This document shows, piece after piece, positions 8,077 to 38,386 of a DNA stretch of 64,000 nt (position 1 is its first letter; the number at the start of each line of letters is the position of its first letter). A program made the translations under genes and the position numbers. Source of the DNA: Veillonellales bacterium (GTDB lineage Bacteria > Bacillota > Negativicutes > JAAYSF01); assembly GCA_039680175.1 (NCBI GenBank), contig JBDKTO010000117.1:47278-111277 (forward strand), read 5' to 3'. The notes under the pieces were generated by a model that did not search any database, was not told where the DNA came from, and was given only the letters and a program-made list of their open reading frames with translations.

Positions 8077-8078
8077 AA

Positions 8079-13106: not shown

Positions 13107-13113
13107 GGTTTAG

Positions 13114-14345: not shown

Positions 14346-14790
14346 TATGTGGGAAGCAGTGGGACGTTCTTTTTGCTCCGCCTATGATAAGATATTTATC
14401 AGGCCGTAAGCGAAAAGCAGCTGGATGAGTTGAAAAAGCTCGCTGCGATTGTGCTGACTCGGTAAACATGTATAGCTTCTCCACTGCATACAGCGGCAGG
14501 TTCAGCAGCCAATCTTCCTTTTTATAATCGGCCATTGATGCGCGTATCGATAGTTTGGGCCGGAATTTTTCATAATACGTTTTTAGACTCTTTGCCTTCA
14601 AATTTGTTTCGGCTTTGACTTCGATGGGGATGATTTCACTGCCATTATCCGCTGCAAAGCTTAAAGGCTTTCATATCTTCATAAGCCTTTAGTGGAACAG
14701 CCGGTGCAGTCACACGATGTACTTTATGCACCAGGCTGCAGTCGGTAACATAGTAATAATATTTGAGAATGTCTAAACAAAAAATACAAC
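14335..14790 (-). pseudogene. Decayed partial duplicate of the DUF4143 AAA+ ATPase gene
   Basis: Nucleotide stretches 14341-14640, 14641-14740 and 14741-14830 are near-identical to parts of 9590-11100, with internal deletions. The 88-aa ORF matches the ATPase C-terminus (KAKSLKTYYEKFRPKLSIR...). Confidence 0.65.
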
Positions 14791-15040
14791 GGAAATATGT
14801 ATAATACGTACATTTTTTCGAACTAAAAAATTTAAAGCAGTAGGGACGATTTCAGGCTGCCGGGGGTTTTGCCTCGGAATACCCGTGAATTTTGGTATGC
14901 TGTGGCGCTGGGGAAATCAAGAAAGAAATAACGCCCCTTCAAGCAACGGGGACGCTGTTTTTGTTTCTTGATTGATAGAGTATTTATTCTTTCGGCAGGC
15001 TGCCGGTTGTTTTGCTTGCCGGGTTTAGGGTATAATAAAA

Positions 15041-15322
15041 ATGGAATATCCGTATTGTATGTTCAGCATAATGGAAGAGGCAGGTGGGTTTTGCATGAAA
15101 CCGGCAATAGAGTTTGCAAAGGCTATTGGGAAAACCAGAGAAAAGGTAAATGCAGCAGCTCAAAATGGTATTATATTAGAGAAATCCCCAAGGGTTCGGT
15201 TTCGGAACGAAAGTGAGAAAGCGGCACTGTGCCGATCTGTTGTTTTTACTGTTGAACAAGCGAAGCGATCCGGGAGGCTGCATAAATCGGGAAAAGGTTA
15301 TGTATTATCATGGAAGAATTAA
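15041..15322 (+). CDS. Small hypothetical protein (copy 2 of a duplicated gene). It is followed by a truncated nucleotidyltransferase start (MEELKKRLKGCI*).
   Basis: Near-identical to 11636..11950. The downstream partner gene is truncated after 12 codons at ~15310-15348. Confidence 0.4.
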   Translation: MEYPYCMFSIMEEAGGFCMKPAIEFAKAIGKTREKVNAAAQNGIILEKSPRVRFRNESEKAALCRSVVFTVEQAKRSGRLHKSGKGYVLSWKN

Positions 15323-16017
15323 AAAAGCGGCTAAAAGGATGTATATAAAAAGCATAGGGACGTACATTTTGCTTCTCCTATAGAAATAATTATCTATCGA
15401 GACGGAAGTTCGTCAGATGCAGTGCCATTAAGACGCCACCTTGATAATGATAGCTCTAAAAGGCACACAAGGCAGCAACGAGAGATTGCTTCGCTGGCGC
15501 TCGCAATGACAGGCTGAAGAATCAGGGACATTCTTTACTCCTTTTATGTATGGTTCCCAGGCTGCCGGTTGTTTTGTTCTGAAATTGCCGGTGAATTCTG
15601 GTATGCTGCGGTGCCGGGTGACAATAGGTGGATCATTGTTATAATAAAGCCGAAGGCAGCAGGGAAACGGCAAAGCGGCTGCTGGACATGGGGATGTCGG
15701 TGTCTGATGTTGCCAAAGCAACGGGGTTGTCTTAGACGGAAGTTCGTCGATGCAGTGCCATTAAGACTCTGCTTGATAATGACAGCTTCTAAAAGGCACA
15801 AGGCAGCAACGAGAGATTGCTTCGCTGGCGCTCGCAATGACAGGCTGAAGAATCAGGGATGTTCCTTTTGTTTCCTCCATGTATGGTTTCCGCTTTTTTA
15901 CAGGCTGCCGGTTTTTTTGTCTGAATTTGTTCGTGAATTTTGGTATGCTGCGGTGTCGGGTGACAATAGGGTGGATCATTGTTATAATAAGGATAAAGAG
16001 GAAAAGAGGCGAAGCCT

Positions 16018-16452
16018 ATGGGTGCCAATCTGGCTGGAAAGAAGCGTAACGACAGGCTGCTGCAAGTATTAACCCCTTTTTTGTTGTCCAGAACGGAGAT
16101 TCAGTTTGCCTGGTTATTTGGATCGTATGCCACGGGGCGGAATACGGCATCCAGTGATATCGATATTGCTATTTTTGTTAACGATCTGAGACTATTGGGT
16201 GATACGGATTGGTATCTTGGCTTGAAATCAGATTTAATGGCTTTGACACATAAAGAAATCGATTTGATACTTTTGAACAATGCGAAGCCGTTGATGAAAC
16301 ATGCGGCTAATATGAAAAAAATAGTTTTACTGGCTCGTGATCCGTTGTTTGAGGCGGAATATGCGTTATCGGTCATTAAAGAATATAATGATGTGCGGTA
16401 TTGGGCGCAGCTTTCCCGGCAGCGCTTACTAGGAGGAGCGAAGCATGGTTAA
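16018..16452 (+). CDS. mntA: Minimal nucleotidyltransferase (MNT) antitoxin of a HepT/MNT type VII toxin-antitoxin pair
   Basis: GS-x10-DID motif (FGSYATGRNTASSDIDIAIF). 144 aa. Overlaps the downstream HEPN gene by 8 nt. Confidence 0.7.
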   Translation: MGANLAGKKRNDRLLQVLTPFLLSRTEIQFAWLFGSYATGRNTASSDIDIAIFVNDLRLLGDTDWYLGLKSDLMALTHKEIDLILLNNAKPLMKHAANMKKIVLLARDPLFEAEYALSVIKEYNDVRYWAQLSRQRLLGGAKHG

Positions 16453-16858
16453 GCATGATATTGTAGAACGGAAGTTGTGCCAAATTCAAAAATCTTTGGA
16501 AAAGATTTTGCTTTACCGTTCTTTGTCTTATGAGGAGTTTGTTAATCACGCAGTTGCCAGAGATGTGGTCGAATACAATCTTTTTATTATTATTAATTCC
16601 ATGATTGATATTGTAAATCATATTGTGACTGATGATGAATTGGGAGAAGTAGACATGCTGGCAGATGGATTTCGTATTTTAGAGACTTATGGATATTGGG
16701 ACAAAGAGCAAGCAAGCATATATACTAAAATGGTTGCTTTTCGTAATATGATTGCTCATCAGTATGCTGATATTGGCGCTCATGTAGTGTATGATGTTTT
16801 GCAGCATAAACTTGAAGGTGTTGAAAATTTCAACCGGCAGATTAGTGATAAATTGTAG
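16445..16858 (+). CDS. hepT: HepT-like HEPN toxin (DUF86)
   Basis: R-x4-H-x-Y motif present (FRNMIAHQY). 137 aa. Translationally coupled to the MNT gene. Confidence 0.7.
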   Translation: MVKHDIVERKLCQIQKSLEKILLYRSLSYEEFVNHAVARDVVEYNLFIIINSMIDIVNHIVTDDELGEVDMLADGFRILETYGYWDKEQASIYTKMVAFRNMIAHQYADIGAHVVYDVLQHKLEGVENFNRQISDKL

Positions 16859-21889: not shown

Positions 21890-23272
21890 ATGAAGGTAAT
21901 TATTTTGGCCGGCGGCGGCGGAACCCGGTTATTCCCATTGTCCAGGGCGTGCTTTCCCAAGCAGTTTCTGCAGATTGACCAGGGAAAATCTCTGCTGGTT
22001 CAGACAGTGGAACGGTTTAAGCTCCTGGTAAAAGCGGCTGATCTGGTGATTGTGACTAATCAGGCGTATTTTCATCATGTAAAGACCGAGCTGGCAGCCT
22101 GTGGGGCGGCAGAGGCTCATATCCTGCTGGAACCGGTGGGGCGGAATACGGCTCCGGCCATTGCGCTGGCAGCCCGGTATTGCCTGGATGAGCTGGGGGC
22201 GGGCCGTGACGAAGTGTTGTTTGTGACGCCTTCCGATCATATTATCAAGCCGGTGGAATCTTTTGTCCGGTCGGTACGTCAGGCGGCGGCTCTGGCAGTT
22301 CGGGACAAGGTGGTAACTTTCGGCATTCAGCCGGATAAACCGGAGACGGGATATGGCTATATTCAGGCCGGTAAGGCTATAGAAATCGGTTATGAGGTCG
22401 AATCTTTTAAGGAAAAACCGGATCAGGCGACGGCAGAGGAGTACCTGGCAGCAGGAAATTATTATTGGAACTCAGGCATGTTTGCGTTTACGGTTGGCTG
22501 TGTTATGGAGGAGCTTCAATCGTATCAGCCTGAGATTTATCAGTTAGCCATGGCGCCCCTGGCGGATGTTTTGGCACATTTTTCCGAGATGCCTACTATC
22601 TCTATCGATTATGCGGTGGCGGAAAAATCCAGGCGGACGGCGATTATTCCTTTCGCCGCTTATTGGAATGATATTGGGTCCTGGGATGCCATTTATGAAG
22701 TGCTGGGAAAGGATGAGGCGGGGAATGCCCTGCAGGGGGACTGTCTCCCCATTGATTGCACCAACAGTCTGATGCTGGGCCGCAGCCGGTTGATTGCCGG
22801 TATCGGGCTGGAGGATGTACTCGTTGTGGAGACGGATGATGTTATTCTGGTGGCGAAGAAAGGCGAGTCCCAGAAGGTCAAGGATCTGGTTGGCGAATTA
22901 AAGGCCCGGGGACGGCGGGAGGCCAGTGAGCAGACGACTATGTACCGGCCCTGGGGCAGCTATACGGTGCTGGGAGAAGGGCCGGGCTACAAGATGAAGA
23001 AGATCGTGGTCAATCCCGGCGAGCAGCTGAGTCTGCAACTGCATTATCACCGCAGCGAGCACTGGATTGTCATCGGCGGAACAGCCAAGGTGACCGTAGG
23101 CGACAGGGTGCAGATGGTTCATGAGAATGAGAGTATTTTTGTGCCCCAGACGACTAAGCACCGGCTGGAGAATCCGGGAAAGATTCCTTTGGCGATTATT
23201 GAAGTCCAGAACGGCAGTTATTTAGGGGAAGACGATATTGTCCGGTTTGAAGATATTTATGGCAGAGCCTAA
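21890..23272 (+). CDS. manC: Mannose-1-phosphate guanylyltransferase / mannose-6-phosphate isomerase (bifunctional ManC/CpsB type)
   Basis: N-terminal IILAGGGGTRLFPLSR nucleotidyltransferase motif plus a C-terminal cupin (HYHRSEHWIVIGGTAKVTVGD). 460 aa. Confidence 0.85.
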   Translation: MKVIILAGGGGTRLFPLSRACFPKQFLQIDQGKSLLVQTVERFKLLVKAADLVIVTNQAYFHHVKTELAACGAAEAHILLEPVGRNTAPAIALAARYCLDELGAGRDEVLFVTPSDHIIKPVESFVRSVRQAAALAVRDKVVTFGIQPDKPETGYGYIQAGKAIEIGYEVESFKEKPDQATAEEYLAAGNYYWNSGMFAFTVGCVMEELQSYQPEIYQLAMAPLADVLAHFSEMPTISIDYAVAEKSRRTAIIPFAAYWNDIGSWDAIYEVLGKDEAGNALQGDCLPIDCTNSLMLGRSRLIAGIGLEDVLVVETDDVILVAKKGESQKVKDLVGELKARGRREASEQTTMYRPWGSYTVLGEGPGYKMKKIVVNPGEQLSLQLHYHRSEHWIVIGGTAKVTVGDRVQMVHENESIFVPQTTKHRLENPGKIPLAIIEVQNGSYLGEDDIVRFEDIYGRA

Positions 23273-23306: not shown

Positions 23307-24902
23307 TTGTTTATGAATTTGCGAGTATTAAGTTCGACGGTAGCGTTAGGTCTGATCCTTGCCGCAGTGCCGGCAGTGTATGCTCAGGACAATCCGGGCG
23401 GCGGGGGGGCGAGCCGTGTGCCTTATCAGGATCAGCTATCCGGCAATGTTCCTCTCGACAGCTATGTGTATGATTATCTGGATAAGCTGGACGGTTTGGG
23501 ATATTTGCGCCAGATGCAGACCGGAACGAAGCCTTATACCCGGATGCAGGTGGCAGGCTGGGTTGTTCAGATGGATCGGCTGGCAGCACAAAAACAGGAG
23601 ATGGCGCCTTATGCCAAGTCTTTGCTGCGGGAACTGAAGACAGAATTTAAAAATGAACTGGCGGTTTTGAACGGGACGGCCCGGCCCGGCGGTTTGGCGC
23701 TGCGGGAAATTCAGTTTGAGGAAAATTTTTACCATGGCGGTACTGTTTCACAGAAGCCCTGGACGAAGTCTACCTATCAGCCCCTGAATGTGAATAATGA
23801 CGGCTATAAATATGGCAGGAACGCTAATGAGATGCTGTCCCTGCGGCTGGAAGGCAGTCTGGGAGAGCACTTGATGCTGAGTGTGACGCCGCGGACGGAT
23901 TACAATAGTACGGATGACAGCAAAACTACCGTTGAATCGGGGTATATCAAGACCAATATTAATAATCTGTCGATTCAGATTGGGAAAGACGCCAACAGCT
24001 GGGGCCAGGGGGTTAGGAGCCACCTGACTTATTCCAACAATGCCGAGCCGATGACGTCGATCAGATTGTCTAATATAGAACCAATGAAAATCAAGCATGG
24101 GTATTTCAAATTTTTGCGGGAGTCGAATACTACCTTTACGTATGCGAGGATGGAAGGAAACCGGTCTGATGTGCCGCATCCTTCTTTTGTCGCCTGGCGC
24201 AAGGACTTCACGCCAAGTGACAACTTTACCTTTGCTTTGGAACACGCGTCGATTATCGGGGGCCTGGGTCATGCTTTGAGCGGTTCCGATTATTATCGCT
24301 TGCTAACAGGCAGGAATGCCGGCAACTGTTCATCTCCTAATACCATCGATGAATGGAATACTCAGGCCGGCGGTGATTTCCGCTGGCGGCTGCCTCACCT
24401 GAATGGAATCCAGGTTTACGGTGAGTTTTATGGGGAAGACCGGCACCGGTATATTCTGTATTATCCTTACCGGTTTGCCGAGATCATGGGTGTGTATATT
24501 CCCCGTTTGACTAGGGATGGAAGCTGGGATGCTACTTTGGAAGTGCATCACACTGATCCCTGTTGGTATATGCATGGAACGTATACCGACGGCTGGGTGT
24601 TCAAAGGCAATATTATCGGGGATGCAATTGGCAATCATGCCAAAAGCTATTATGCGAAAGTGACTCACTATCAGGATAACGGTTCCCAGTTGTCTTTTAA
24701 TCTGGAACAGGTGAAGATGGAGTATGAAAGCCCCGAATCGCAAAAATTTAATTCCGCCTGGGCCAATTACCGGACAAAGCTGGATCAGGATATGTTTATG
24801 GATTTGACGGCGGGAGTGTCGCATATTGATAATTTTAACTTTTTGTCCGGGGAGAATAAACGGAACTATAAAGTAGGGCTGGGGATTACGAAACGCTATT
24901 AA
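23307..24902 (+). CDS. Secreted outer-membrane protein, possibly a Wzi-like capsule assembly protein
   Basis: Signal peptide (LGLILAAVPAVYAQ). 531 aa, with aromatic-rich beta-strand-like repeats and a C-terminal ..GLGITKRY. The Wzi assignment is tentative and rests on size, N-terminal helical region and context. Confidence 0.4.
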   Translation: MFMNLRVLSSTVALGLILAAVPAVYAQDNPGGGGASRVPYQDQLSGNVPLDSYVYDYLDKLDGLGYLRQMQTGTKPYTRMQVAGWVVQMDRLAAQKQEMAPYAKSLLRELKTEFKNELAVLNGTARPGGLALREIQFEENFYHGGTVSQKPWTKSTYQPLNVNNDGYKYGRNANEMLSLRLEGSLGEHLMLSVTPRTDYNSTDDSKTTVESGYIKTNINNLSIQIGKDANSWGQGVRSHLTYSNNAEPMTSIRLSNIEPMKIKHGYFKFLRESNTTFTYARMEGNRSDVPHPSFVAWRKDFTPSDNFTFALEHASIIGGLGHALSGSDYYRLLTGRNAGNCSSPNTIDEWNTQAGGDFRWRLPHLNGIQVYGEFYGEDRHRYILYYPYRFAEIMGVYIPRLTRDGSWDATLEVHHTDPCWYMHGTYTDGWVFKGNIIGDAIGNHAKSYYAKVTHYQDNGSQLSFNLEQVKMEYESPESQKFNSAWANYRTKLDQDMFMDLTAGVSHIDNFNFLSGENKRNYKVGLGITKRY

Positions 24903-24949
24903 GCCTGGCTGTGTATCCCGGATTTTTCCATACAGAAAGGTGTGGTCCG

Positions 24950-25909
24950 ATGCAAAAGCAGAAGATTCGTAAGGCGATTATTCCCGCGGCAGGGCTTGGC
25001 ACGAGGTTTCTTCCGGCGACGAAGGCTCAGCCGAAGGAAATGCTGCCGATTGTGGATAAGCCGGCCATTCAGTTTATTATTGAGGAAGCCATTCAGTCGG
25101 GAATTGAGGAGATCTTGATTATTACCGGCCGGAACAAGCGGGCGATTGAGGACCATTTCGACCGGGCCGTGGAACTGGAGCTGACTCTGAAGCAACAGGG
25201 AAAATATGATTTGCTGGGATTGGTGCAGGAGATAGCGGATGTGACCATTCACTATATCCGGCAGAAAGAAGCGAAAGGGCTGGGACATGCTGTGCTTTGC
25301 GCCAGGCAGTTCGTGGGGGATGAGCCTTTTGCCGTACTGCTGGGCGATGATATTGTGGATGCCAAGGTGCCTTGCCTGCGGCAGCTGATGGATGTGTATG
25401 AGGACTGCGGCGGCAGTGTGCTGGGAGTACAGGAGGTTCCTCAGGACAGGGTCAGCAGTTATGGAATTGTGAAGCCCAGACCGGTAAAGGAGAATCTGTG
25501 GCAGGCGGAGGATCTGGTGGAAAAACCGGCGGTGGAGGAAGCTCCTTCCCGGCTGGCGGTTCTGGGCCGCTATATTATTGAGCCGGAGATTTTTCCCCTG
25601 CTGGAAGATACGCCGCCGGGACGGGGCGGGGAGATCCAGTTGACGGACGCACTGAGGCGGCTGGCGGCGGATAGACCGGTGTATGCTTTTTGTTTTGACG
25701 GACGAAGGTATGATATTGGCGATAAGCAGGGGTATCTGGAGGCGACGGTGGAGTATGCGCTGAAGCGGCCGGAGCTCAGGGACAAGTTTTTGCGGTATTT
25801 GCTGAAGACGGTGGGTACGCTGGCCAGTCCGGAGGCGGCAGCGGCGGCGACGGAAGACGGACCGGGGACGCCACCCCCCGTCGCTTCGCGCCACCCCCAC
25901 TCTGTATAA
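24950..25909 (+). CDS. galU: UTP--glucose-1-phosphate uridylyltransferase
   Basis: KAIIPAAGLGTRFLPATKAQPKEMLPIVDKP is the canonical GalU N-terminus. The start is placed at the internal Met with RBS gaaaggtg. The ORF reads through into a downstream repeat element, so the true C-terminus may be shorter. Confidence 0.85.
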   Translation: MQKQKIRKAIIPAAGLGTRFLPATKAQPKEMLPIVDKPAIQFIIEEAIQSGIEEILIITGRNKRAIEDHFDRAVELELTLKQQGKYDLLGLVQEIADVTIHYIRQKEAKGLGHAVLCARQFVGDEPFAVLLGDDIVDAKVPCLRQLMDVYEDCGGSVLGVQEVPQDRVSSYGIVKPRPVKENLWQAEDLVEKPAVEEAPSRLAVLGRYIIEPEIFPLLEDTPPGRGGEIQLTDALRRLAADRPVYAFCFDGRRYDIGDKQGYLEATVEYALKRPELRDKFLRYLLKTVGTLASPEAAAAATEDGPGTPPPVASRHPHSV

Positions 25910-26023
25910 TTCGATTAGCGACACAGAGTATCATGAAAGAGCATCGGGGGAGGCTCCAGAGATCGCCGCGTCGCTATCGCTCCTCGCGATGACAGAATTC
26001 AGTGCTATGCACCAAGTACGACG

Positions 26024-26120: not shown

Positions 26121-27107
26121 ATGAATGTATTGATTACCGGGGGGGCCGGGTATATTGGGTCCCATACGGTGCGGGAGTTAATGAAGCGTGCTTCGGTTGT
26201 GGTGTATGACAATCTGTCCAAAGGCCACCGGGAGTCGGTGCCGGCGGGGGTGGACTTTGTTCAGGGAGATATCCGGGACAAGAAGCTGCTGACCGGGGTA
26301 TTGCGGCAGTACGGCATTGAGGCGGTAGTGCATTTCGCCGCCGACAGTCTGGTCGGGGAGTCGATGCGGCAGCCGTCGAAATATTACCATAACAATGTGG
26401 CGGCAACGCTGGAACTGTTGGATGCAATGACGGAATGCGGCGTGAAAAAAGTTGTGTTTTCTTCTACGGCGGCTGTTTACGGCCAGCCGGAGATTTGGCC
26501 GATTAGCGAGGAAACGGCGACGGCGCCGACGAATGTGTATGGCCGGACGAAGCTGGTGATTGAGGGGATGCTGGCCGATTTTGCCATGGCTTACGGCCTC
26601 CGCTATGTGTCTTTGCGCTATTTTAATGCTGCCGGAGCGCTGGCAGGCGGGGCGATCGGGGAAGACCACGAGCCGGAAACTCATTTGATTCCGCTGATTC
26701 TGCAGACGGCCCTGGGGCAGCGGGATGGGATCAGCGTTTTTGGCGCAGACTATGAAACACCGGACGGGACTTGCGTCCGGGACTATGTTCATGTGACGGA
26801 TCTGGCGGCGGCTCATGTGCTGGCGTTGCAGCATCTGGCAGCCGGGGGAGATTCCCGGGTATACAATCTTGGCTCGGAGACGGGATTCAGTGTCCGGCAG
26901 GTGATTGACCGGGCGAAAGCGATTACGGAAGTTGATTTTCCGGTGCGGCAGGCGGCCAGAAGGGACGGCGATCCGGCAGTGCTGGTGGCTTCGGCGGCGA
27001 AGATTCGCCGGGAATTGGGCTGGAAGCCGGTACAGAGCGATCTGTCGTCGATTCTTCGCAGTGCCTGGATTTGGCAGCAGGGACATCCGGCGGGATATAG
27101 CAGGTAA
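26121..27107 (+). CDS. galE: UDP-glucose 4-epimerase
   Basis: MNVLITGGAGYIGSHT start with a YGRTK catalytic motif. ~328 aa from the internal start. Confidence 0.85.
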   Translation: MNVLITGGAGYIGSHTVRELMKRASVVVYDNLSKGHRESVPAGVDFVQGDIRDKKLLTGVLRQYGIEAVVHFAADSLVGESMRQPSKYYHNNVAATLELLDAMTECGVKKVVFSSTAAVYGQPEIWPISEETATAPTNVYGRTKLVIEGMLADFAMAYGLRYVSLRYFNAAGALAGGAIGEDHEPETHLIPLILQTALGQRDGISVFGADYETPDGTCVRDYVHVTDLAAAHVLALQHLAAGGDSRVYNLGSETGFSVRQVIDRAKAITEVDFPVRQAARRDGDPAVLVASAAKIRRELGWKPVQSDLSSILRSAWIWQQGHPAGYSR

Positions 27108-27137
27108 GCTTCATTTGAGATAGGGAGGTCGCAGCAA

Positions 27138-28502
27138 TTGGAAAAGTTTAAGCGGAATGCGTTCAAGGCCTATGATATCCGGGGCAAGGTGCCGGGCGAG
27201 CTGAATGAGGCAATGGCTTACCGGATTGGCCGGGCTTATGTGGAGATTTTCAAGGTAAAGAAGGTGGCTGTGGGACGGGACATCCGGCTGTCCGGTCCGG
27301 TTCTGCGGGATGCTTTGGTTAACGGACTGACGGAGGCCGGCTGTGATGTGGTGGATATCGGCGTCTGCGGTACGGAAATGATCTATTTTACCACGGCTCA
27401 TTTCAAGCTGGACGGGGGCATCATGATTACCGCCAGCCACAATCCCCAGGATTATAACGGCATGAAGCTGGTGCGGGAAGGCTCCCGGCCGATCAGTGCC
27501 GACAGCGGGCTGAAGGAGATCGAGGAACGGGTGGTGACCGGGGAGTTTCCCGCCGGGGCTGCCGGGCAGCCCCGGGGGCAGGTCACAAAACGGGACATTA
27601 TGGATGAGTATATTCAGCATTTGCTGACTTATATCGATATTGACAGTCTGAAGCCTTTCAAAGTGGTGGTGAACGCCGGCAACGGCTGCGCCGGTCCGAT
27701 TTTGGATCAGCTGGAACGGTTTCTGCCTTTTAAATTCATTAAACTCAATCATGAGCCGGACGGGACGTTTCCTCATGGCGTACCCAATCCCCTGCTGGTG
27801 GAAAACCGGGATGCCACGGCGAAGGTGGTGCGGGAGCAGGGAGCGGCTGCGGGAATTGCCTGGGACGGCGATTTTGACCGCTGTTTCCTGTTTGATGAAC
27901 AGGGCGGCTTTATTGAAGGCTATTATCTGGTGGGATTTTTGGCTCAAGCCTTTTTGCGGAGAGCTCCCGGGTCTAAGATTATTCACGATCCCCGGCTGAC
28001 CTGGAATACGATTGAGGTGGTTAAGGCAGCCGGCGGCATTCCGGTGCAGTCGAAGAGCGGCCACTCTTTTATGAAAGAAACGCTGCGGCGGGTGGATGCG
28101 GTATACGGCGGCGAGGTGTCGGCCCATCACTTTTTCCGCGATTTTTCCTAGTGCGACAGCGGCATGATTCCCTGGCTGCTGGTACTGGAGATCATGAGCC
28201 AAGGCGGCAAGCCGCTGTCGGTGCTGATGCAGGAACGGATGGCCTGTTATCCGATCAGCGGGGAAATTAATAGTACGGTGGCCAATCCGCAGGCGATAGT
28301 AGAGCAGATGGAGGAGAAATTTGCCAAGGGTGCGGTTTCCGTGGAGCATATTGACGGACTGAGTGTGGAGTTTGACACCTGGCGGTTCAATGTGCGGCTG
28401 TCCAATACGGAGCCGGTGCTGCGGCTGAATGTGGAGACGAAATGCGATCCAAAATTGCTGCAGCAGAAGACGGAGGAACTATTGGCGTTTATTCGGAGGT
28501 AG
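27138..28502 (+). pseudogene. manB: Phosphomannomutase/phosphoglucomutase (ManB/CpsG-like) interrupted by a single in-frame TAG at 28149..28151
   Basis: Active-site TASHNPQDYNGMK. ..[14 protein letters not shown] is followed in the same frame by [11 protein letters not shown]. In intact PMMs this region reads [16 protein letters not shown], so the TAG replaces a conserved Tyr codon. TTG start. Confidence 0.75.
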
Positions 28503-28544
28503 AAAAGCATTTTGCGGGATTGTTTGCGGGAGGTCAGGCGCTGA

Positions 28545-30029
28545 ATGAATGATCAGGATTTGCGGCCGATTGTGGAGGTCAGTTATTTAAGCACGGACAA
28601 CACCTGGCGGTACCGGGCTATTTTGCGGTACTGCTTTCTCCAGCATGAGCGTTTGCGCCACTATGTGTATCCGGAAGAGATTTATCAGGATTTGCGGCAA
28701 AACAGTTTTTTTGCCGAATACAGCGAGGACCAGCTGCAGCAGGATTTAAAGCAGCTGGTGGAGTGGAAGAATTTGATTCCCCGGCAGGAAACGGGACGGG
28801 TTCATACGATTGAGGACTTTAAGCGAAAAAAGTTTCGCTATCAATGTACGCCCTACACGATTGAAATTGAACGGATGGTGAATAAGCTGGCCCAGCTGGG
28901 GGGCGGCTTTGGCGGCGGTTCTCTGGAGGTTACGCTGTTTGAGCGGCTGCTATCATCGCTGGTGCGGCTGCTGGAGCAGGGAATGACTCTGGAGGCGGGG
29001 GAACTGAATCAGACGTGGGAAGATTTGTACGGCTATTTTCGCGACATGGTGCAGAATGCTTCCGATTATCTGGCGCATTTGAAAAGCGACAAGGTGGAGG
29101 AGCACATGATGACGGAGGCGTTTGTCGCGTATAAGAATGCGTTTACCCAGTATTTGCAGAATTTTATTTTGAGTATGCAGCGGACTTCTTTTAAAATCGA
29201 GGGGGCGCTGAAAAAGGCTTCGCCGGAGCTGGCAGCCGGGATCGCCGGGAGGCTGGCGGATTACCAGCTGAGCATTCCCCGGATGGAGCCCCAACCCGGA
29301 CGGGAAGAGTGGCAGGAAAGCTATCAGGATAAATACCGCAGTCTGTCCGAGTGGTTTTTGGGGCGGGGAAATCATCCCAGCGAACTGATCACGCTGCAGA
29401 ATGAGACGACGGAAACAATCAGGCGGATTACCCGGTTTGCCCAGCGGGTGGGGGAGAGACGGCAGGCGTTCCGCAGCCGGCGTCATGATTATCTGCATTT
29501 GGCCGGCTGGTTTGCCGGTCTGCCGGCAGTGGGGGAATGCCATCAGCTGTCGTCGCTCTTATTCGGCATTGCCCATACCCGCCATTTTTACGGCGAACCC
29601 CGGCTCAGCGAGGATATGGACAGTTTGGTGTGGGACGAAGCGCCGACAGTGGTGACGGTGACGCCGCGGGTCGCAGGCTACCGGGAGAAGAGCCGGCCGG
29701 GGGCGGTGGTTGACCGGACGGCGGAAAAGCGGGCCGCTTTGCAGGAGTATATTGCCGGTCAGCGGCAGAAGGAAGCGTTGCTTGAGGGGTTAATCTGCAA
29801 TCAGCGGATTGTATTGGCCGATTTGCCGGAAGTGGATCCCTTTGTCCGCAAAACGCTGCTGGTGTGGATTACCCGCTGCATGCAAAATAAGGAGCGGCGG
29901 ATTCAGACTGAGACCGGGCGAAGCATCCGGCTGCTGGACGGCGTCAGGGGCAGCCGGACTGTGCTGCGCAGTACGGACGGCGAACTGGAGATGCCGAATT
30001 ATATTTTAGAATTCAGCGGTGCCCGGTAA
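28545..30029 (+). CDS. jetA: Wadjet JetA-like / MksF-like kleisin-type subunit (DUF3375 / TIGR02677-type)
   Basis: 494 aa. It is the first of four co-oriented, overlapping genes ending in a >1400-aa SMC-like ATPase and a Toprim protein. Glycine-rich linker GGGFGGGS. Size and position fit JetA. The family was not verified by search. Confidence 0.6.
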   Translation: MNDQDLRPIVEVSYLSTDNTWRYRAILRYCFLQHERLRHYVYPEEIYQDLRQNSFFAEYSEDQLQQDLKQLVEWKNLIPRQETGRVHTIEDFKRKKFRYQCTPYTIEIERMVNKLAQLGGGFGGGSLEVTLFERLLSSLVRLLEQGMTLEAGELNQTWEDLYGYFRDMVQNASDYLAHLKSDKVEEHMMTEAFVAYKNAFTQYLQNFILSMQRTSFKIEGALKKASPELAAGIAGRLADYQLSIPRMEPQPGREEWQESYQDKYRSLSEWFLGRGNHPSELITLQNETTETIRRITRFAQRVGERRQAFRSRRHDYLHLAGWFAGLPAVGECHQLSSLLFGIAHTRHFYGEPRLSEDMDSLVWDEAPTVVTVTPRVAGYREKSRPGAVVDRTAEKRAALQEYIAGQRQKEALLEGLICNQRIVLADLPEVDPFVRKTLLVWITRCMQNKERRIQTETGRSIRLLDGVRGSRTVLRSTDGELEMPNYILEFSGAR

Positions 30030-30051
30030 ACAGAAAAGTGTGGAGGATGTT

Positions 30052-31254
30052 ATGGCGCAGGACAATCTGGTTTCGCTGCAGGCTGATCCGGAAGATATCA
30101 GAGAAGCAACGACGTTACTATTGGAAAATTATTGGATTCTCCGGGAGGAACAGCCGGAGCAGTATCAGCTGATCCGCCGTTATGAACCGGCGTTAAGACG
30201 GTATTTTTTTGAAAAATGCGGCTGGCGGCTGATTCAAAATCCTCAGTTCTACAAGCTGGAAAAAATTCCGGATCAGCCCCAGGCCTGGATGGGAATTGAA
30301 AGTTTTCAGCAACCCAGGGATTATTCGCTGCTGTGCTGCCTGCTGGCTTTTTTGGAAGAAAAGGCGGTAGAGGAGCAATTTTTGCTCAGTGAGCTGTGTG
30401 AAAGCATTTTGGCTTTCTATCCTCACGAGGCGGGGGACGGCGGCAGGCTGAACTGGGAAAATTATGAGCATCGCCGGTCGCTGGTCCGGGTCCTTGCCTT
30501 TGCGGCGGAAGCCGGACTGCTGCGGCTGGTGGATGGAGACAGCGAGCAGTTTGCGATGCGCCGGGAGGGGGAAGCCTTGTATGAGGTGACTCTGTTGGCG
30601 CGTTATTTTTTACGTTCCTATCCGAAAGATTTGCAGCAGTACGACAGCATGCAATCGCTGCAGGCCGCCGAGCTTTCCGACGACGAGGCTGCTACGGGGA
30701 CGGGGCGCCGGAACCGGATTTACCGGCAGCTGCTGCTGACGGCGGCGTATAACGGCGACGACGCCCGGCCGGAAGATTTCGCCTATTTACGGAATATGCA
30801 GCGGCGGCTGCGGGAGGAACTGGAGAATACGACCGGTCTGCAGTTTGAACTGTACAAGGATTGCGCTATGCTGACAAGCCCGGAACGGACCGGCTGGGGC
30901 CGGCAGATTTTTCCGGCTTATCGCAGCGGGATTCATGCCGTGGTTTTGCATTTTGCGGCACTGTACCGCCGGCAGCGGCAGAAAAAAGAGGCGCCGGACA
31001 GTCTGAGCGCCGTGGAATTCGAGGGTTTGGCGGCGGAATGCCGCCGGGAGTATGGGTCGGGCTGGACGAAGGAATACCGGGAGCTGCCGCTGGGCAGACT
31101 GGCTGCCACTGTGCTGGCGGAGCTGGTGGAGTGGAATATGGCGGTAACCGACAGGGAAACCGGACTGATTCAATTCCGACCGGCGCTGGGACGGCTGCAG
31201 GGGCAGTATCCGACGGATTATCAGGGCAAGAGCCGGGAGGGGAAAAGCAGATGA
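30052..31254 (+). CDS. jetB: Wadjet JetB-like / MksE-like subunit (DUF4194 / TIGR02678-type)
   Basis: ~400 aa. A strong RBS (ggagg) lies 7 nt upstream of the ATG at 30052. Its stop TGA overlaps the jetC ATG (ATGA at 31251-31254). Confidence 0.55.
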   Translation: MAQDNLVSLQADPEDIREATTLLLENYWILREEQPEQYQLIRRYEPALRRYFFEKCGWRLIQNPQFYKLEKIPDQPQAWMGIESFQQPRDYSLLCCLLAFLEEKAVEEQFLLSELCESILAFYPHEAGDGGRLNWENYEHRRSLVRVLAFAAEAGLLRLVDGDSEQFAMRREGEALYEVTLLARYFLRSYPKDLQQYDSMQSLQAAELSDDEAATGTGRRNRIYRQLLLTAAYNGDDARPEDFAYLRNMQRRLREELENTTGLQFELYKDCAMLTSPERTGWGRQIFPAYRSGIHAVVLHFAALYRRQRQKKEAPDSLSAVEFEGLAAECRREYGSGWTKEYRELPLGRLAATVLAELVEWNMAVTDRETGLIQFRPALGRLQGQYPTDYQGKSREGKSR

Positions 31255-34200
31255 GGAACAAATGGCAGATGAACCGGGCCGGTGTGCTGAATTACTGGTA
31301 TTATGATGAGGAAGAATTTGATTTTGCCGATGGACGGCTGCTGCTGCGAGGCAGCAACGGATCGGGAAAATCGGTGACGATGCAAAGCTTGATTACGGTG
31401 CTGCTTGACGGGGTCAAGAGTCCGGACCGTTTGGACAGCTTTGGTTCCCGTTCCCGGCGGATGGAGGATTATCTGCTGGGGGAAAAGGAAATCGTCAACC
31501 GGGATGAGCGTACCGGCTATCTGTATCTGGAGTACAAGCGGCAGCAGACGGATCAATATGTGACCACCGGTATCGGTCTTCACGCCCGGCGCGGCGGCAC
31601 CGTTGATTTTTGGGGCTTTGTCATTACCGACAACCGGCGTATCGGCCGGGATTTCTGGCTGTATAAGCGGGAGATGAATCCGGAAGACGGCTCCCCCCAG
31701 CGCATCCCTTTTACCCGGGCCGAGCTGGAACGGGCCGTCGGCTCCGGCGGACAGGTGGTGCGGTCGCAGAAGGACTATATGGAACTGGTGAACCGGCATG
31801 TATTCGGGTTCGAGAATTTGGAGCAGTATCAGGAACTGATGAAGCTTCTCATTCAGCTGCGCAGTCCGAAATTGTCTAAGGATTTTAAGCCCAGTGTTAT
31901 TTATGAAATTTTAAATGAATCGCTGCCGTCTTTGTCGGATGAAGAATTGCGTCCGTTGTCGGATACGATTGAAAGCATGGAGCGGATCAAGCTTCAGATC
32001 GAGCAAATGGAACGGGATCGCCAGGCTTTGAACCGGTTGTGCCGCCAGTATGACGGATATAACGAGTATGTGCTGGCGGAAAAGGCGGACTTGGCGCAAA
32101 AAGCCGAACGGCGGCACAGCCGGCTGGAACGGGAGGGCAAAGAACTGGCGGAAGGACTAGCGGAAGCAGCCGGACTGCTGACGGAACAGCGGCGGAGTCA
32201 GGCGGAGCTGGAACGGGAGCTGGCAGTTCTGGAAGTGGAAAAGGCGGAACTGGAGAAGCATGATGTATTTCAGGTGGAGCAGCAAAAGCAGGCCAAGGAA
32301 CAGCAGCTGATCCAGCTGGAGGGTGAGCAGAAAAACCGGGAAGAGAAATTGGCGGAGCGGCAAAAGGGAGAGCGGGAAGAACGGCAGCTGGTTTTGGAAT
32401 ATGAAGGACAGCGGGAAACCTTCCGGCAGGGAATGGAAGAACAGCTGGAAGACATGGCTGCTTTGGCGGCGGAAGCTGATTTCAGCGATCATGAGTTGTT
32501 GGCGCGGGATTTTGCCGTTCAGCCGGCAAAGGTTTCTTTCGGGGGATGGCGGCAAAATTCCCAATCCCATGTAGCAAGGCTGGAAGCGGGGCTGCAGGTG
32601 CTGCGTCGGCAGCGGGAAGCCCGGCTGCGCCGCGACCGGATTGAACAGGAACTGGGGGAGGAACGGCGACTGCTCGACGAATACCGGGGCGAACATCGTA
32701 AGCTGGAGCAGCGGTTTCTGGAGGTCCGGGAGCAGCTGTTGGCCGATGTGTACAGCTGGCAGCAGCGTTATGACGCTGATTTGCCGCTGGAGAAGGAAGA
32801 ACTGCGGCAGATTGCCCAGGGCATTCAGGGATTGTATGAAGGACGGCTGTGGAGCGATGTGCAGGCGCCGCTGGATACAGCTTACGGGCGGCAGGTCGAC
32901 CGGCTGAACCAGGAACTGGGTTTAAACGGAGCCCGGCTGCGCCAGCTGGAGGAACAGGAACAGGGTCTGCAGCAGGAACTGCAATCCTGGCGGGATCAGC
33001 GGGATCCGGAGCCGGAGCGGCTGCCGGATGTGGAGGCGACCCGCCGGCTGCTGACGGAAAAACAGGTCCCTTTCGTGCCTTTTTATGCGGCTGTCGAATT
33101 TGATTCCAGGGTGACGCCGGCCATGCGGGAGCGTCTGGAAGCGGCACTGACCGATATGGGGCTGCTGGATGCTTTGATTGTTCCGGCCGGCCGGCTGCCG
33201 GAACTTTCCGGACTGGAGGCTTACGGTTCGGTGTTTTATCCGGATCCCCAGATTATGACTGCCACGCTGGCGGATTATCTGCAGCCGACTCCGCCGGTAG
33301 ACGGGAAGGTGTCGGCGGCGGATATTGATGAGGTTCTGCGGAGCATTTTGATTGACGACTGCCGGCCGGGGACAGGGCCGGCGGCGAATGGCAGCAGCCA
33401 GCCGGTGCTTTCGGCTGACAGCGGCGATTACCGGTTGAACCTCGTCAGCGGTCGGGCGTCCCGCCGCCAGTCGGCGGTCTATATCGGCAGGCAGGCCCGT
33501 CAGGAATACCGGCGCCGGCAGATGGCTGAGCTGGAGGAAAAGCTACGGGAAACGGCGCTGGCTGTGGAAGAGGTTCATGGGAAAATGCAGCTGCTGCGAA
33601 GCCGTCAGGAGAAAAATCGCCAGGCCAGGGAAGACTTTCCGGCAGAAACGGAAATCCGGGAGATTTTTCATAACAAGCAGGCGGTGACCGCGAATATTGT
33701 CCGGCAGGAACAGCGGGTCAATGTAGTGGACGGGCGGCTGCGGGAAGTTACCGGTGAAGTGCTGTCTTTGCGGCAGGAGTGGCAGAAGGTCAGCGACGGG
33801 CTGAAGCTGCCGGCGGATGAATCCGGTTATGAAGGCGCGGTGTCGGTGATGCGGCAGTATCAGCAGAGTCTCCATGAGCTGGAATTGAGCCGGCAGGGAT
33901 TTTTGAACAGCAGCGATAATGCCCGGCAATGCGGCCGACGGCTGGCGGATTTGTCCGCCGAGGTGGACGGATTGAAAGGCGAACTGCTGGTGCAGGAAGG
34001 CCGGCTGCAGACGATCCGGCTGGAAATTGACCGGCTGGAAAGCCGGATGCGGGAGATGGGAGCGGAAGAACTGCGGGAGCGTGTTCGGTTTGTGGCCAAA
34101 CGGCTGAAGGAAATACCGGCAGCGGTCAAAGAACTGATTGCCGCTGCTGCCAAACTGGAAGGCGATATTCGCCTCCAGGAAAGCCGCAAGCTGGAAGTGG

Positions 34201-35480
34201 CGGCTAAGACTCAGTTTGTCGGACAGCTGATTGTCTGCTGGCAGCAGCTGCTGAAGCAGGAATTGCAGCTGGGTTTGGTTTATCCGCCGGACGAGACGAC
34301 TGACAGCGGCGGGATCCTTCGCGACAAGGGCGGCTGGCTGAAGCCTGACAAACCGGACCGCATCAGCCTGACGGATCGGATCAGCAAAAGCTTTGCGGTG
34401 GAAAATAATGTGCTGATGGAATACCGGATGCAGCTGGAGCCGCTGACTGTTGAAATTAAGGCTGTACCGGTTTTGCCGGAAAATAGGGAGGAAGACGACG
34501 GACTGGCCGCCGATCTGGAAAAGCTGCGGGAGAAATCGCATCGTCTGGTGATTACTCTGGATTACGACGGACGGCGGCAGAATCCTTATCAACTGCAGCA
34601 GGTTTTGAACCGGCAAATTGAGGAGCAAAAGGCGATTTTGTCCGATAAGGACAAGGAATTGTATGAAGAAGTGATTATGAACAGTATCGGCCGGATTATC
34701 AGCCGCCGCATCCGTTCGGCTCAGCAATGGGTAGAGAAAATGAACAAACTGATGCAGCAGCGGGACAATTCCAGCGGATTGAAGTTTAAACTGGAGTGGA
34801 AAGCGCGGACCGCGGACCGGGATGAGGAACTGGATACGCAGGATTTGGTGCGGCTGCTGCATGCCGATCCGGCGGTTCTAAAGGAAGAGGATTTAGCGAA
34901 AATGGTGAGCCACTTTCAGTCCCGCATCCAGCAGGCCAAGCAGGCCAGCGAAGGAGCAGCCGGGGAAGCCGAGGCCACTTTTCAGCAGGCCGTCCGGCAG
35001 CTGCTGGATTATCGCCTCTGGTTCCAATTTAAGCTGCAGTATACCCAGGTAAATTTGAACTGGCGGGAACTGAGCGATAAGGTATTTTTCAAGTTCAGCG
35101 GCGGTGAAAAAGCCATGGCCATGTATATTCCCCTATTTTCAGCCGCTTATTCCCGTTATCAGGAGGCCGGTCCGGACGCGCCGTATATTATTACTTTGGA
35201 TGAAGCCTTTGCCGGGGTGGATGAAAACAATATCCGGGATACTTTTGCCTTAGTGGAGCAGTTAGGGTTTAATTATATTATGAATTCCCAGGCGTTGTGG
35301 GGAGATTATGATGTGGTGCCGTCTTTGGCGGTTTGCGAGCTGATTCGCCCCCAGAATGCGCCTTATGTTACGGTGGTGCGGTATCACTGGAACGGGTCGG
35401 TGCGGACACTGCAGGCAGCCGGCGAGGCGGAACAGGCTGCTTCTTCGGTGGTGGCCGCCGCCCGGCAGGGGGAACAATGA
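31251..35480 (+). CDS. jetC: Wadjet JetC-like / MksB-like SMC-family ATPase
   Basis: 1409 aa from the ATG at 31251. The ORF-track start at 30861 lies inside jetB and is rejected. Walker A GSNGSGKS (aa 34-41). Two long E/Q/R/L-rich coiled-coil arms. C-terminal ABC signature FSGGEKAMAMYIPLF and Walker B YIITLDEAFAGVDE. Confidence 0.8.
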   Translation: MRNKWQMNRAGVLNYWYYDEEEFDFADGRLLLRGSNGSGKSVTMQSLITVLLDGVKSPDRLDSFGSRSRRMEDYLLGEKEIVNRDERTGYLYLEYKRQQTDQYVTTGIGLHARRGGTVDFWGFVITDNRRIGRDFWLYKREMNPEDGSPQRIPFTRAELERAVGSGGQVVRSQKDYMELVNRHVFGFENLEQYQELMKLLIQLRSPKLSKDFKPSVIYEILNESLPSLSDEELRPLSDTIESMERIKLQIEQMERDRQALNRLCRQYDGYNEYVLAEKADLAQKAERRHSRLEREGKELAEGLAEAAGLLTEQRRSQAELERELAVLEVEKAELEKHDVFQVEQQKQAKEQQLIQLEGEQKNREEKLAERQKGEREERQLVLEYEGQRETFRQGMEEQLEDMAALAAEADFSDHELLARDFAVQPAKVSFGGWRQNSQSHVARLEAGLQVLRRQREARLRRDRIEQELGEERRLLDEYRGEHRKLEQRFLEVREQLLADVYSWQQRYDADLPLEKEELRQIAQGIQGLYEGRLWSDVQAPLDTAYGRQVDRLNQELGLNGARLRQLEEQEQGLQQELQSWRDQRDPEPERLPDVEATRRLLTEKQVPFVPFYAAVEFDSRVTPAMRERLEAALTDMGLLDALIVPAGRLPELSGLEAYGSVFYPDPQIMTATLADYLQPTPPVDGKVSAADIDEVLRSILIDDCRPGTGPAANGSSQPVLSADSGDYRLNLVSGRASRRQSAVYIGRQARQEYRRRQMAELEEKLRETALAVEEVHGKMQLLRSRQEKNRQAREDFPAETEIREIFHNKQAVTANIVRQEQRVNVVDGRLREVTGEVLSLRQEWQKVSDGLKLPADESGYEGAVSVMRQYQQSLHELELSRQGFLNSSDNARQCGRRLADLSAEVDGLKGELLVQEGRLQTIRLEIDRLESRMREMGAEELRERVRFVAKRLKEIPAAVKELIAAAAKLEGDIRLQESRKLEVAAKTQFVGQLIVCWQQLLKQELQLGLVYPPDETTDSGGILRDKGGWLKPDKPDRISLTDRISKSFAVENNVLMEYRMQLEPLTVEIKAVPVLPENREEDDGLAADLEKLREKSHRLVITLDYDGRRQNPYQLQQVLNRQIEEQKAILSDKDKELYEEVIMNSIGRIISRRIRSAQQWVEKMNKLMQQRDNSSGLKFKLEWKARTADRDEELDTQDLVRLLHADPAVLKEEDLAKMVSHFQSRIQQAKQASEGAAGEAEATFQQAVRQLLDYRLWFQFKLQYTQVNLNWRELSDKVFFKFSGGEKAMAMYIPLFSAAYSRYQEAGPDAPYIITLDEAFAGVDENNIRDTFALVEQLGFNYIMNSQALWGDYDVVPSLAVCELIRPQNAPYVTVVRYHWNGSVRTLQAAGEAEQAASSVVAAARQGEQ

Positions 35481-36853
35481 GCGGAAAGAAGCCGCAGGAC
35501 CTACTGCTGGCCGAGGCGGCGGACTACTTTCATTCCCATTCCGGCCTGGAGCGCCTCCTGGCCGGAATGACGGAAAAGTACCGTACGCTGGGCCGGCTGG
35601 CGGGAGTCGTGGTATTGACCGGAGTCAGCAGGGAAGAAAAGACAGCTTTGGAGTCTTTTTTTCGCCGGGTGCTGCCGGCAGGCAGTCTGCGGATTTCCGC
35701 CGAAAAGTTTAAAACCGCCTTGGCGGAAACCCGGTTCGGCGGTTTGGACCCCTTGGCGGTACTGGCGGCCTGGCAGGGAGAACCCCTTGTCAGCCGCCGG
35801 GAGAAGCAGGAGCAGGCAGAGAGCCGGCGGCGCCGGGCGTTGACAGCATTGTTGGCTAAGTTTTCTCAGCCTTTTTGCCAGGCTTGGCTGAAAGGGGCGC
35901 TGGACCGGGAAGAAGGTACAAGACGGGTGCAGACGGCCTTTCGCCGCGATCCCCGTCGGTTTATGGAGAATATGTCAGTGGCGCTGCGGGCTATGGCCGG
36001 GTTGCCGGAAGAATATCGGCGGCTGCCGGTATTTTCCCGGGAAATATGCGGCAATCCCCACGGCCTGGATATTGACGGTGAGGCCGGGAAACTGCTGTTG
36101 GAAGGACTGGCATATATCCGCCGGTCAAGGCAGGAAGAGTGCGACAGCTCCTTTTGCACCGGCGACGGCGGCGAATCGCCGGAGAGACTGTCGGCTATTG
36201 AAGTAATTACGGAACTGTTGTATCATTTTCGGCTGCTGAGGGATGATTTGCTGAATTTTGTGACTTGCATCGGTTTGGCCGCTGATGACCGGCGGGGAGA
36301 GATCGTCTACTGGCGCCGGGCGGTTCAGGCCGGTGCGCCGCTGAATCTGCCCCTGCGGGAGGTAGTGCGGGCGGTAAAAATTTATCCGGCGGCAGCCGGG
36401 CGAGAGAACGATGCTGGTTATGAGGTGCTGGTGGTGGAAAATTCCGGAGTATTTTCGGCCCTGCTGGATGAAAAAGGCGGGGACGGCAGCTGGGGGGGAA
36501 AACCGCTGGTTTGTCTCCACGGTCAGCCGAAGCTGGCTTCCTGGGCTCTGCTGGATCGTCTTGCCGGCAGCGGTGCGCTGCTGCGCTATGCCGGCGATTT
36601 TGATCCGGAAGGGCTGCAGATTGCCCAGAAATTACTGCGGCGGTATGCCGGCCGGGCCGGTCTTTGGCGCATGACGGCGGCGGATTACCGGGAGGCCGGT
36701 CCGTCTGAACCCATCGGCCGGGGCCGGCTGAACAAATTACGGTCTGTTGTCCTGCCGGAACTGGCGCCGCTGTGTCAGCTGATGGAGCAGACGGGCCTGG
36801 CGGCTTATCAGGAGGGATTGCTGGCAAAGCTGGCCGCGGATATAGAACTTTAA
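35477..36853 (+). CDS. jetD: Wadjet JetD-like / MksG-like protein with a C-terminal Toprim-like domain (DUF3323+DUF2220-type)
   Basis: 458 aa. ATGA overlap with the jetC stop. The C-terminal region has Toprim-like acidic motifs (LVVENSGVF ... AGDFDPEGLQIA). Confidence 0.65.
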   Translation: MSGKKPQDLLLAEAADYFHSHSGLERLLAGMTEKYRTLGRLAGVVVLTGVSREEKTALESFFRRVLPAGSLRISAEKFKTALAETRFGGLDPLAVLAAWQGEPLVSRREKQEQAESRRRRALTALLAKFSQPFCQAWLKGALDREEGTRRVQTAFRRDPRRFMENMSVALRAMAGLPEEYRRLPVFSREICGNPHGLDIDGEAGKLLLEGLAYIRRSRQEECDSSFCTGDGGESPERLSAIEVITELLYHFRLLRDDLLNFVTCIGLAADDRRGEIVYWRRAVQAGAPLNLPLREVVRAVKIYPAAAGRENDAGYEVLVVENSGVFSALLDEKGGDGSWGGKPLVCLHGQPKLASWALLDRLAGSGALLRYAGDFDPEGLQIAQKLLRRYAGRAGLWRMTAADYREAGPSEPIGRGRLNKLRSVVLPELAPLCQLMEQTGLAAYQEGLLAKLAADIEL

Positions 36854-36859
36854 AAATAG

Positions 36860-38386
36860 GTGCAGATGGGAGCGACTGACATGACAAAACAGAGTAATTT
36901 CCTTAAACTGGAGTCTGGTTTTTGTTTTGACTATACCAACCTGTTTGGCGAGCAAAAAGTGACGGCCGGGGATGTTAACGAGCTGGCCGGCCGGCTGGAA
37001 CAGGCTCATCAGGCAGTCTGCCGGATGCGGGATACAGGTGAGGTCAGGGGGCATCGGTCGAAAGACGGTACGGCGGAAAAAGTGCTGTTTACTCAGTTGC
37101 CTTATATTGCCGACGGACAGTTGAATTCCCCGGCTTCCCTGGAACGGCTGAAGAATTTCGGTCGCTCCCTGCGCTGCCGGGCGGATGCGGTGGTGTCTTT
37201 TGGTATCGGCGGGTCCTATTTGGGCAATAAGGTTTTATTTGATGTTCACTGCGGTGAGTTTTGGAACAGTAAGACGGCTGAGGAACGGGACGGCTATCCT
37301 AAGCTGTATTTCAGCGGCAATAATATTGATCCTCGGCGGACGGGGGATTTGGTGGAGCAATTGGTGCGGGAAGCGAAGAGAAAGGACAACACACCCCACC
37401 CGGCAGGTACCCCTCTTGCTAGAGTGGATTGTAAACAGCCTTATAAGGTTACTTTGATTGTGATTTCCAAATCCGGGTCGACATTGGATACGATGTCGAA
37501 TTTTCTGGTGGTGTATGATGCGCTGCAAAAGCAGGCGCCGCTGATTGAAGTCGAGGTTGCGGCGGTGACGGATCCGGCGGCGGGGGAAAAGGCGACGCTG
37601 CTAAAAAAATTGGCTGGCGAGCAGGGATGGCGGACTTTCAGCGTGCCGGACGGCGTCGGCGGGCGGTTCAGTATATTTTCCGAAGTGGGGCTGATTACGG
37701 CGGCTTGCATCGGCTTTGACATGGACGGCTTTTTGGCCGGAGCCCGGAATATGGATGAAGTCTGTCAGACCGGGGATGTGTGGCGCAATCCGGCGATGCT
37801 GAATGCGGCGCTGAAATATCTGGCAGCGGCCAAGTACGGGCGGAATATTGAGGTATTTATGCCTTATGGTGATTATCTGAAGTCAGTGGCTGAGTGGTAT
37901 GTCCAGCTGCTGGCGGAATCTCTGGGAAAGCGAACCGATCGTGAGGGCAGGGACGTGTTTTACGGCCGGACGCCGATTGTGGCGGTCGGGACAACGGATA
38001 TGCATGCTCAGACCCAGCAGCATCAGGACGGCAAGCGAGATAAAGTGGTGCAGTTTGTCAGGGTGGCACAGTGGGAAAAAGACCCGGTGATTCCCAATTT
38101 GTATCCCCGGGTGGAGAAACTGGCCGATATGGCGGGAATTACTCTGGGTCAGGCACTGGAAGTCGCCCGGGAAGCCAACGCCGGGGCGCTGGCGGGCGAC
38201 GGACGGTTTAACGCCGTGTTTACACTGCCGCAGCTTACGGCTTATCATCTGGGAGAATTGCTGTATCTGCTGGCACTGTCGGTGGCTTACGAAGGGGAAC
38301 TTGCCAATGTGGATGCTTTCGACCAACCGGGAGTGGAGGCCTATAAGCGGCTGATGGGGCCAAGACTGAGAGCGCTAAAGAGTTAA
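36860..38386 (+). CDS. pgi: Glucose-6-phosphate isomerase
   Basis: PGI signatures GIGGSYLG, ISKSGSTLDT and DGVGGRFSIFSEVG. ~500 aa. Starts 7-28 nt after the jetD stop. Confidence 0.8.
   Translation: MQMGATDMTKQSNFLKLESGFCFDYTNLFGEQKVTAGDVNELAGRLEQAHQAVCRMRDTGEVRGHRSKDGTAEKVLFTQLPYIADGQLNSPASLERLKNFGRSLRCRADAVVSFGIGGSYLGNKVLFDVHCGEFWNSKTAEERDGYPKLYFSGNNIDPRRTGDLVEQLVREAKRKDNTPHPAGTPLARVDCKQPYKVTLIVISKSGSTLDTMSNFLVVYDALQKQAPLIEVEVAAVTDPAAGEKATLLKKLAGEQGWRTFSVPDGVGGRFSIFSEVGLITAACIGFDMDGFLAGARNMDEVCQTGDVWRNPAMLNAALKYLAAAKYGRNIEVFMPYGDYLKSVAEWYVQLLAESLGKRTDREGRDVFYGRTPIVAVGTTDMHAQTQQHQDGKRDKVVQFVRVAQWEKDPVIPNLYPRVEKLADMAGITLGQALEVAREANAGALAGDGRFNAVFTLPQLTAYHLGELLYLLALSVAYEGELANVDAFDQPGVEAYKRLMGPRLRALKS

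Follow-up and report, generated by a model that had tools for sequence, protein, structure and literature searches.

The amber codon and the gene that carries it

Does a stop codon in the middle of a conserved sugar-phosphate mutase gene mark the loss of the enzyme, a fault in the assembly, or a codon that the cell translates? This question is raised by manB, a phosphomannomutase/phosphoglucomutase (PMM/PGM) gene of 454 codons (27138-28502) present in a stretch of 64,000 nucleotides, hereafter the window, from the metagenome-assembled genome (MAG) of an uncultured Negativicutes bacterium. On the plus strand, the triplet at 28149-28151, which is codon 338 of the gene, reads TAG in frame, within CGC GAT TTT TCC TAG TGC GAC AGC GGC ATG. 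The original prediction had placed an in-frame TAG at this position, about 400 bp upstream of a Wadjet-like operon; the sequence and the continuous reading frame confirm the former, and the start of jetA at 28545, 394 nt past the TAG, agrees with the latter. Most likely, a knockout mutation of an ordinary kind and very recent date, or else a fault in the consensus, accounts for the codon, and not a special decoding event.

The gene starts with TTG at 27138, preceded 9 nt 5' by GGGAGG, and its natural stop is a second TAG (28500-28502). It is the only gene in the 64-kb window in which a single stop splits a continuous homology. The same-frame TAGs at 3729 and 53064 were considered as further split genes and rejected, as each of them separates different genes.

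Taken together, the two parts of manB harbour the four domains of the alpha-D-phosphohexomutase superfamily (PMM/PGM, ManB/CpsG/XanA type), with Pfam PGM_PMM domains I, II and most of III in the 337-aa part, and the end of III plus domain IV in the 116-aa part; what the gene lacks is the uninterrupted frame of about 450 aa that characterises the superfamily. The catalytic motifs of these enzymes (TASHNP, DGDxDR, GEMSxH and RxSNTEP) are represented by TASHNP (27429-27446), DGDFDR (27864-27881), GEVSAH in the sugar-binding loop, and RLSNTEP (28395-28415). The earlier claim that both halves keep the other conserved motifs stands for TASHNP, DGDFDR and RLSNTEP, and the C-terminal domain is present. 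The joined product aligns end to end, over four domains, with the Xanthomonas citri phosphoglucomutase XanA (PDB 5BMN/6NN2; E 1.6e-171), which has Tyr at the column where the window gene has TAG, and Met in the GEMSxH loop where the latter has Val. This Val (loop at 28110-28127) stands where 115 of 116 homologues have Met, and A310S is likewise a window-specific change at a near-invariant column.

With regard to nomenclature, the NCBI entry MEN6414789.1, 'MAG: phosphomannomutase CpsG [Veillonellales bacterium]', is identical to the 337-aa product and lies on a contig of 118,665 nt. The NCBIfam family 'phosphomannomutase CpsG' (NF011943) scores best with the joined protein, at 616.6 bits, which is under the curated cut-off of 801 bits, so that neither the name CpsG nor the mannose-versus-glucose specificity of the enzyme is established. 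On the minus strand, long open reading frames lie opposite manB (27111-28349, 412 aa) and galU (24899-25924, 341 aa); these are probably by-products of G-rich codon usage, and not genes.

The position of the stop is highly conserved. Among 116 full-length homologues, the aligned column holds Tyr in 104, Phe in 11 and His in one, and at the DNA level 84 of 85 related loci, genomic and metagenomic, use TAC or TAT, the exception being TTC. TAG was found at this site in no other sequence compared, and the 12 distant relatives retrieved from JGI metagenomes with a degenerate 38-nt pattern likewise carry a Tyr codon (TAC or TAT). The proposal that the stop replaces a conserved Tyr is therefore borne out by both the protein and the codon counts. 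The closest intact relative is a 454-aa protein (P0121) with about 90% identity, falling in the same 90% cluster and encoded on a Logan contig of run SRR26782598 (L002). Its codon at the site is TAC, and one C>G transversion thus separates it from the TAG of the window. The stretch between galU and recD2 is collinear in the two sequences, with 82-90% of the nucleotides identical; L002 has ATG where the window gene has its TTG start (27138-27140). The nearest named relatives of the ManB protein belong to Sporomusa and other Negativicutes (71-77% identity). The best match in a genome collection was at 76%, and a search with the 128 aa centred on the stop yielded nothing above 71% identity.

Table 1. 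Features of the window discussed in the text, with positions counted from its first nucleotide
Feature	Position	Strand	Remarks
Glycosyltransferase and FnlABC-like (UDP-sugar) genes	593-9209		28-37% GC, against ~55% for core genes
DUF4143 AAA ATPase	9670-11022	minus	
PD-(D/E)XK family transposase	13230-14066		
Nucleotidyltransferase	16018-16452		overlaps a 137-aa ORF (16445-16858)
rmlACDB	17.2-20.9 kb		part of the surface-polysaccharide locus
manC	21890-23272	+	sugar-nucleotide gene upstream of manB, dependent on hexose-1-phosphate supply
wzi	23307-24902	+	listed with the upstream sugar-nucleotide genes
galU	24950-25909	+	upstream sugar-nucleotide gene, hexose-1-phosphate dependent
galE	26121-27107	+	upstream sugar-nucleotide gene, hexose-1-phosphate dependent
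manB (PMM/PGM), 5' part	27138-28148	+	337 codons, TTG start; domains I, II and most of III; TASHNP, DGDFDR
In-frame amber TAG	28149-28151	+	in place of a conserved Tyr codon; TAC in the closest relative
manB, 3' remainder	28152-28502	+	116 codons and natural TAG; end of PF02880, PF00408; RLSNTEP
Hairpin	28154-28219	+	perfect 10-bp stem (28154-28163 pairs with 28210-28219); z -2.67
Type II Wadjet operon jetABCD	28545-36853	+	PADLOC JetA2/B2/C2/D2; absent here in relatives
jetA	28545-30029	+	Pfam set for the operon: DUF2397, DUF2398, SMC-like, DUF3323+DUF2399
jetB	30019-31254	+	Wadjet operon
jetC	31251-35480	+	Wadjet operon
jetD	35477-36853	+	Wadjet operon
pgi (glucose-6-phosphate isomerase)	36881-38386	+	directly after manB in the closest relative

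A lost gene, a consensus error or a translated stop

The original prediction had left three options, namely, that a nonsense mutation arose very recently, that the sequencing is in error, or that the amber codon is read through, and this framing is supported by the TAC of the nearest orthologue and by the constraint acting on both halves of the gene. Indeed, both are under equally strong purifying selection, with a dN/dS relative to L002 of 0.116 upstream of the stop (336 codons) and of 0.061 downstream of it (116 codons), at a dS of about 0.46. The lack of decay past the stop implies that the change is very recent or that it is an error in the MAG; taken by itself, it fits a consensus error or a long-standing read-through equally well. 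The substitution also creates the tetranucleotide CTAG, which is strongly avoided in this part of the window, with 16 occurrences between 17 and 50 kb against about 123 expected from the base composition of positions 17000-50000. GATC occurs 120 times in the same interval. The signals of age and the creation of CTAG, considered together, are compatible with a mutation of very recent date as well as with an error. As for the protein itself, 20 derived amino-acid changes, the Met>Val of the GEMSxH loop among them, fall on the window lineage versus 8 on that of L002 (p 0.036). Relaxed selection on manB before the stop was rejected as an explanation, since galE and pgi are not significantly different in this respect (Fisher p 0.20), and the surplus of lineage-specific changes is a hint and nothing solid.

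If the TAG were an assembly or sequencing error, or a minority variant taken up as the consensus, the organism would have TAC and an intact manB. We consider this possible, albeit rather unlikely. The sequence does come from a MAG, a single base is changed, the frame downstream is perfectly conserved, and the CTAG that results is of a kind rare here. Moreover, a Logan contig of the same strain (L001, run SRR15035647, matched via JetA) breaks inside manB at 28412, a hint of mixed related strains; the break suggests that a related strain devoid of the Wadjet insertion co-occurs in the SRR15035647 sample. L001 starts past the TAG, its first position falling within the conserved SNTEP-coding stretch. 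However, over 28412-33029 (4,618 nt) it is 100% identical to the window, so that an independent assembly yields no mismatch over 4.6 kb, and no frameshift or other broken gene is found among the genes syntenic with L002; from galE to recD2, their lengths equal or closely approach those of the orthologues, over 23 kb of synteny. In short-read assemblies, substitution errors of the consensus that create stops are also far rarer than real nonsense pseudogenes. Because the assembly otherwise looks clean and real nonsense pseudogenes are the commoner event, a recent real allele is favoured, with somewhat better than even confidence, over an artefact, for which our confidence is low. The stop interrupts a conserved domain in a gene whose orthologues are intact, as is characteristic of nonsense pseudogenes, and manB would probably be a loss-of-function allele and a nascent pseudogene. 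Exact look-ups of the 337-aa and 112-aa products, GalE, ManC and P0049 returned no match for the same strain, and no mention of the run or protein accessions was found in the literature.

A real TAG might also be translated, by a pyrrolysine (Pyl) tRNA should pylTSBCD be present as in Sporomusa, or by some other amber suppressor, the full-length enzyme being then made constitutively or conditionally. We regard this as improbable. The frame past the TAG is fully conserved and a stable hairpin begins 2 nt after it, but the same hairpin exists in taxa with a Tyr codon and its stability is not exceptional. In E. coli, a U directly after the stop codon makes an efficient termination context, and a U follows the premature TAG of manB. 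No relative has TAG at the site, which belongs to a conserved aromatic residue in a family unrelated to the methylamine methyltransferases, and neither tRNA genes nor pyl-like genes occur within the 64-kb window. TAG ends 29% of the window ORFs of at least 100 aa (16 out of 56, manB itself included), and the TAG-terminated genes for a response regulator (223 aa) and RecD2 (718 aa) give products of the same lengths as their L002 orthologues; a reassignment of TAG to sense is thus rejected. That some anaerobic Firmicutes carry the Pyl machinery, as the original prediction noted, applies closely here, since Sporomusa, among the nearest named relatives, possesses a pylTScBCDSn cluster, with pyl genes in Sporomusa ovata and S. 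silvacetica (PMC3772150, PMC5609420). Furthermore, Pyl insertion requires no cis element, its outcome being set by competition against the release factor; in Acetohalobium, such insertion is a conditional event (PMC8211752). A split gene, in which the 337-aa fragment and a 112-aa fragment restarting at ATG 28164 assemble into an active enzyme, is the least credible reading of all. An in-frame ATG does lie 12 nt past the TAG, but it is not preceded by a Shine-Dalgarno-like sequence, the break falls inside domain III instead of at a domain boundary, and no relative has a split manB. The DNA around this ATG is identical to that of the intact L002 gene except for the C>G change, hence nothing there is adapted to a split gene.

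The comparison with known Pyl-containing genes leads in the same direction. The mtmB, mtbB and mttB genes of methanogens and of some Firmicutes, including Sporomusa, likewise carry an in-frame UAG within a conserved open reading frame, and the window lineage has relatives with pyl genes (PMC3772150). In contrast to these genes, the UAG of manB is not conserved among orthologues, the feature by which a Pyl-decoded gene is recognised; manB belongs to an unrelated family, its UAG occupies a Tyr position and not that of an active-site Pyl, and no pyl gene accompanies it within 64 kb. The original prediction had deemed Pyl unexpected at a structural Tyr, a view supported by the absence of TAG in relatives and of anything specific to recoding. 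If the genome has a pyl cassette, its expression would entail a leaky suppression of the manB UAG. That a Sporomusa-type pyl cassette or another suppressor is indeed present in the genome, and that the UAG is read through whenever that system is on, is highly improbable. Were it so, a core sugar-phosphate mutase and the synthesis of surface polysaccharides would depend on an expansion of the genetic code, and manB would represent an accidental 'Pyl-dependent' allele outside the methylamine methyltransferases. The wider interest of this TAG resides only in such read-through by Pyl or a suppressor, for which there is no positive evidence.

The hairpin behind the stop was examined as a PYLIS- or SECIS-like recoding element, and this interpretation was rejected. 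Among GC-matched windows of the region, its fold energy ranks in the top 4% and does not fall outside their range. An identical perfect stem is present in a Geobacteraceae and a gammaproteobacterial locus (L028 and L048), and a near-perfect one in four further loci (L023, L050, L085 and L087), all of which have a Tyr codon at the site. From these comparisons, we judge the stem to be a coincidental complementarity between the codons of DSG and PLS, residues that are conserved.

The polysaccharide locus and the Wadjet operon

A surface-polysaccharide locus of about 25 kb, which includes regions of foreign GC content and remnants of mobile elements, ends with manB, whose upstream neighbours are sugar-nucleotide genes that rely on hexose-1-phosphate. 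The C>G transversion would convert the Tyr codon TAC into TAG, and translation would end past residue 337. The truncated ManB would be devoid of the last part of domain III and the whole of domain IV, with its phosphate-binding loop, and is expected to be inactive by analogy with the well-studied PMM/PGM of P. aeruginosa. In the latter enzyme, the role of the domain IV RLSNTEP motif in phosphate binding is established. If manB encodes the sole PMM/PGM of the cell, less mannose-1-phosphate would be available to ManC and less glucose-1-phosphate to GalU and RmlA, the latter two being starved as well provided that ManB is bifunctional and unique; a second PMM/PGM gene was not found within the 64-kb window. 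The shortage of precursors would then be expected to alter the LPS or capsule produced by the adjacent polysaccharide cluster. Variants of this type are common where phages or culture conditions exert selection.

The stop resembles nonsense alleles of manB/cpsG/algC-type PMM genes in other surface-polysaccharide loci, which also have a single premature stop in an otherwise intact gene, neighbours such as manC, galU, galE and rml, and a position at the edge of a variable polysaccharide cluster. Unlike these known loss-of-function alleles, it is represented by the sequence of a single MAG, where an artefact is possible. The biology of the stop is ordinary. If real, it would add another case of a natural population losing a gene for surface-polysaccharide precursors, perhaps because of pressure from phages or culture, and the annotation should read manB pseudogene in place of a 337-aa 'CpsG'; if it is an artefact, one base in manB has to be corrected.

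Downstream of manB, the window harbours a type II Wadjet (JetA2B2C2D2) plasmid-restriction system, with all four genes in canonical order in one operon and PADLOC E-values of 1e-186, 9e-134, 0 and 4e-127 for JetA2, B2, C2 and D2, respectively. In L002, pgi follows manB after 35 nt, and the gene order in Sporomusa, Pelosinus and Selenomonas is manB-galU-pgi; in none of the 29 related loci examined (L002 and 28 others) do jet genes lie between manB and pgi. The homology to L002 breaks off at the stop codon that ends manB, and picks up again some 25 nt ahead of the start of pgi. This break and the absence of jet genes in relatives indicate that the jetABCD cassette, of about 8.3 kb (28503-36860), is an insertion into a conserved sugar-metabolism cluster. 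Flanking repeats or an integrase were not seen at the cassette, and its GC content matches that of the flanks. Since the operon was inserted between these two genes, its proximity to the TAG is without demonstrated functional meaning; the operon does not form part of the mechanism proposed for the stop. A polar effect of the TAG on jetABCD-pgi would be possible, but is speculative and not the preferred reading. The intervening 393 nt, from the premature stop to jetA, are rich in G and poor in C, with a C/G ratio of 0.55, and as such make a poor substrate for Rho loading; neither a terminator-like nor a promoter-like site was found between manB and jetA.

At the other end of the locus, the low-GC block at 593-9209 probably represents an O-antigen or capsule module gained by horizontal transfer. 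Between this module and the rml genes, the interval 9670-16858 contains short ORFs together with mobile or defence-like genes, and the 137-aa ORF might encode the toxin-antitoxin partner of the overlapping nucleotidyltransferase. The flagellar, secretin, Lpp and Wzi genes present in the window fit a motile diderm bacterium of the Negativicutes. Downstream of flgN, flgK and flgL, the flagellin gene (59913-62345) is unusually long, coding for 810 aa, with normal N- and C-terminal flagellin domains that enclose a central region of about 580 aa.
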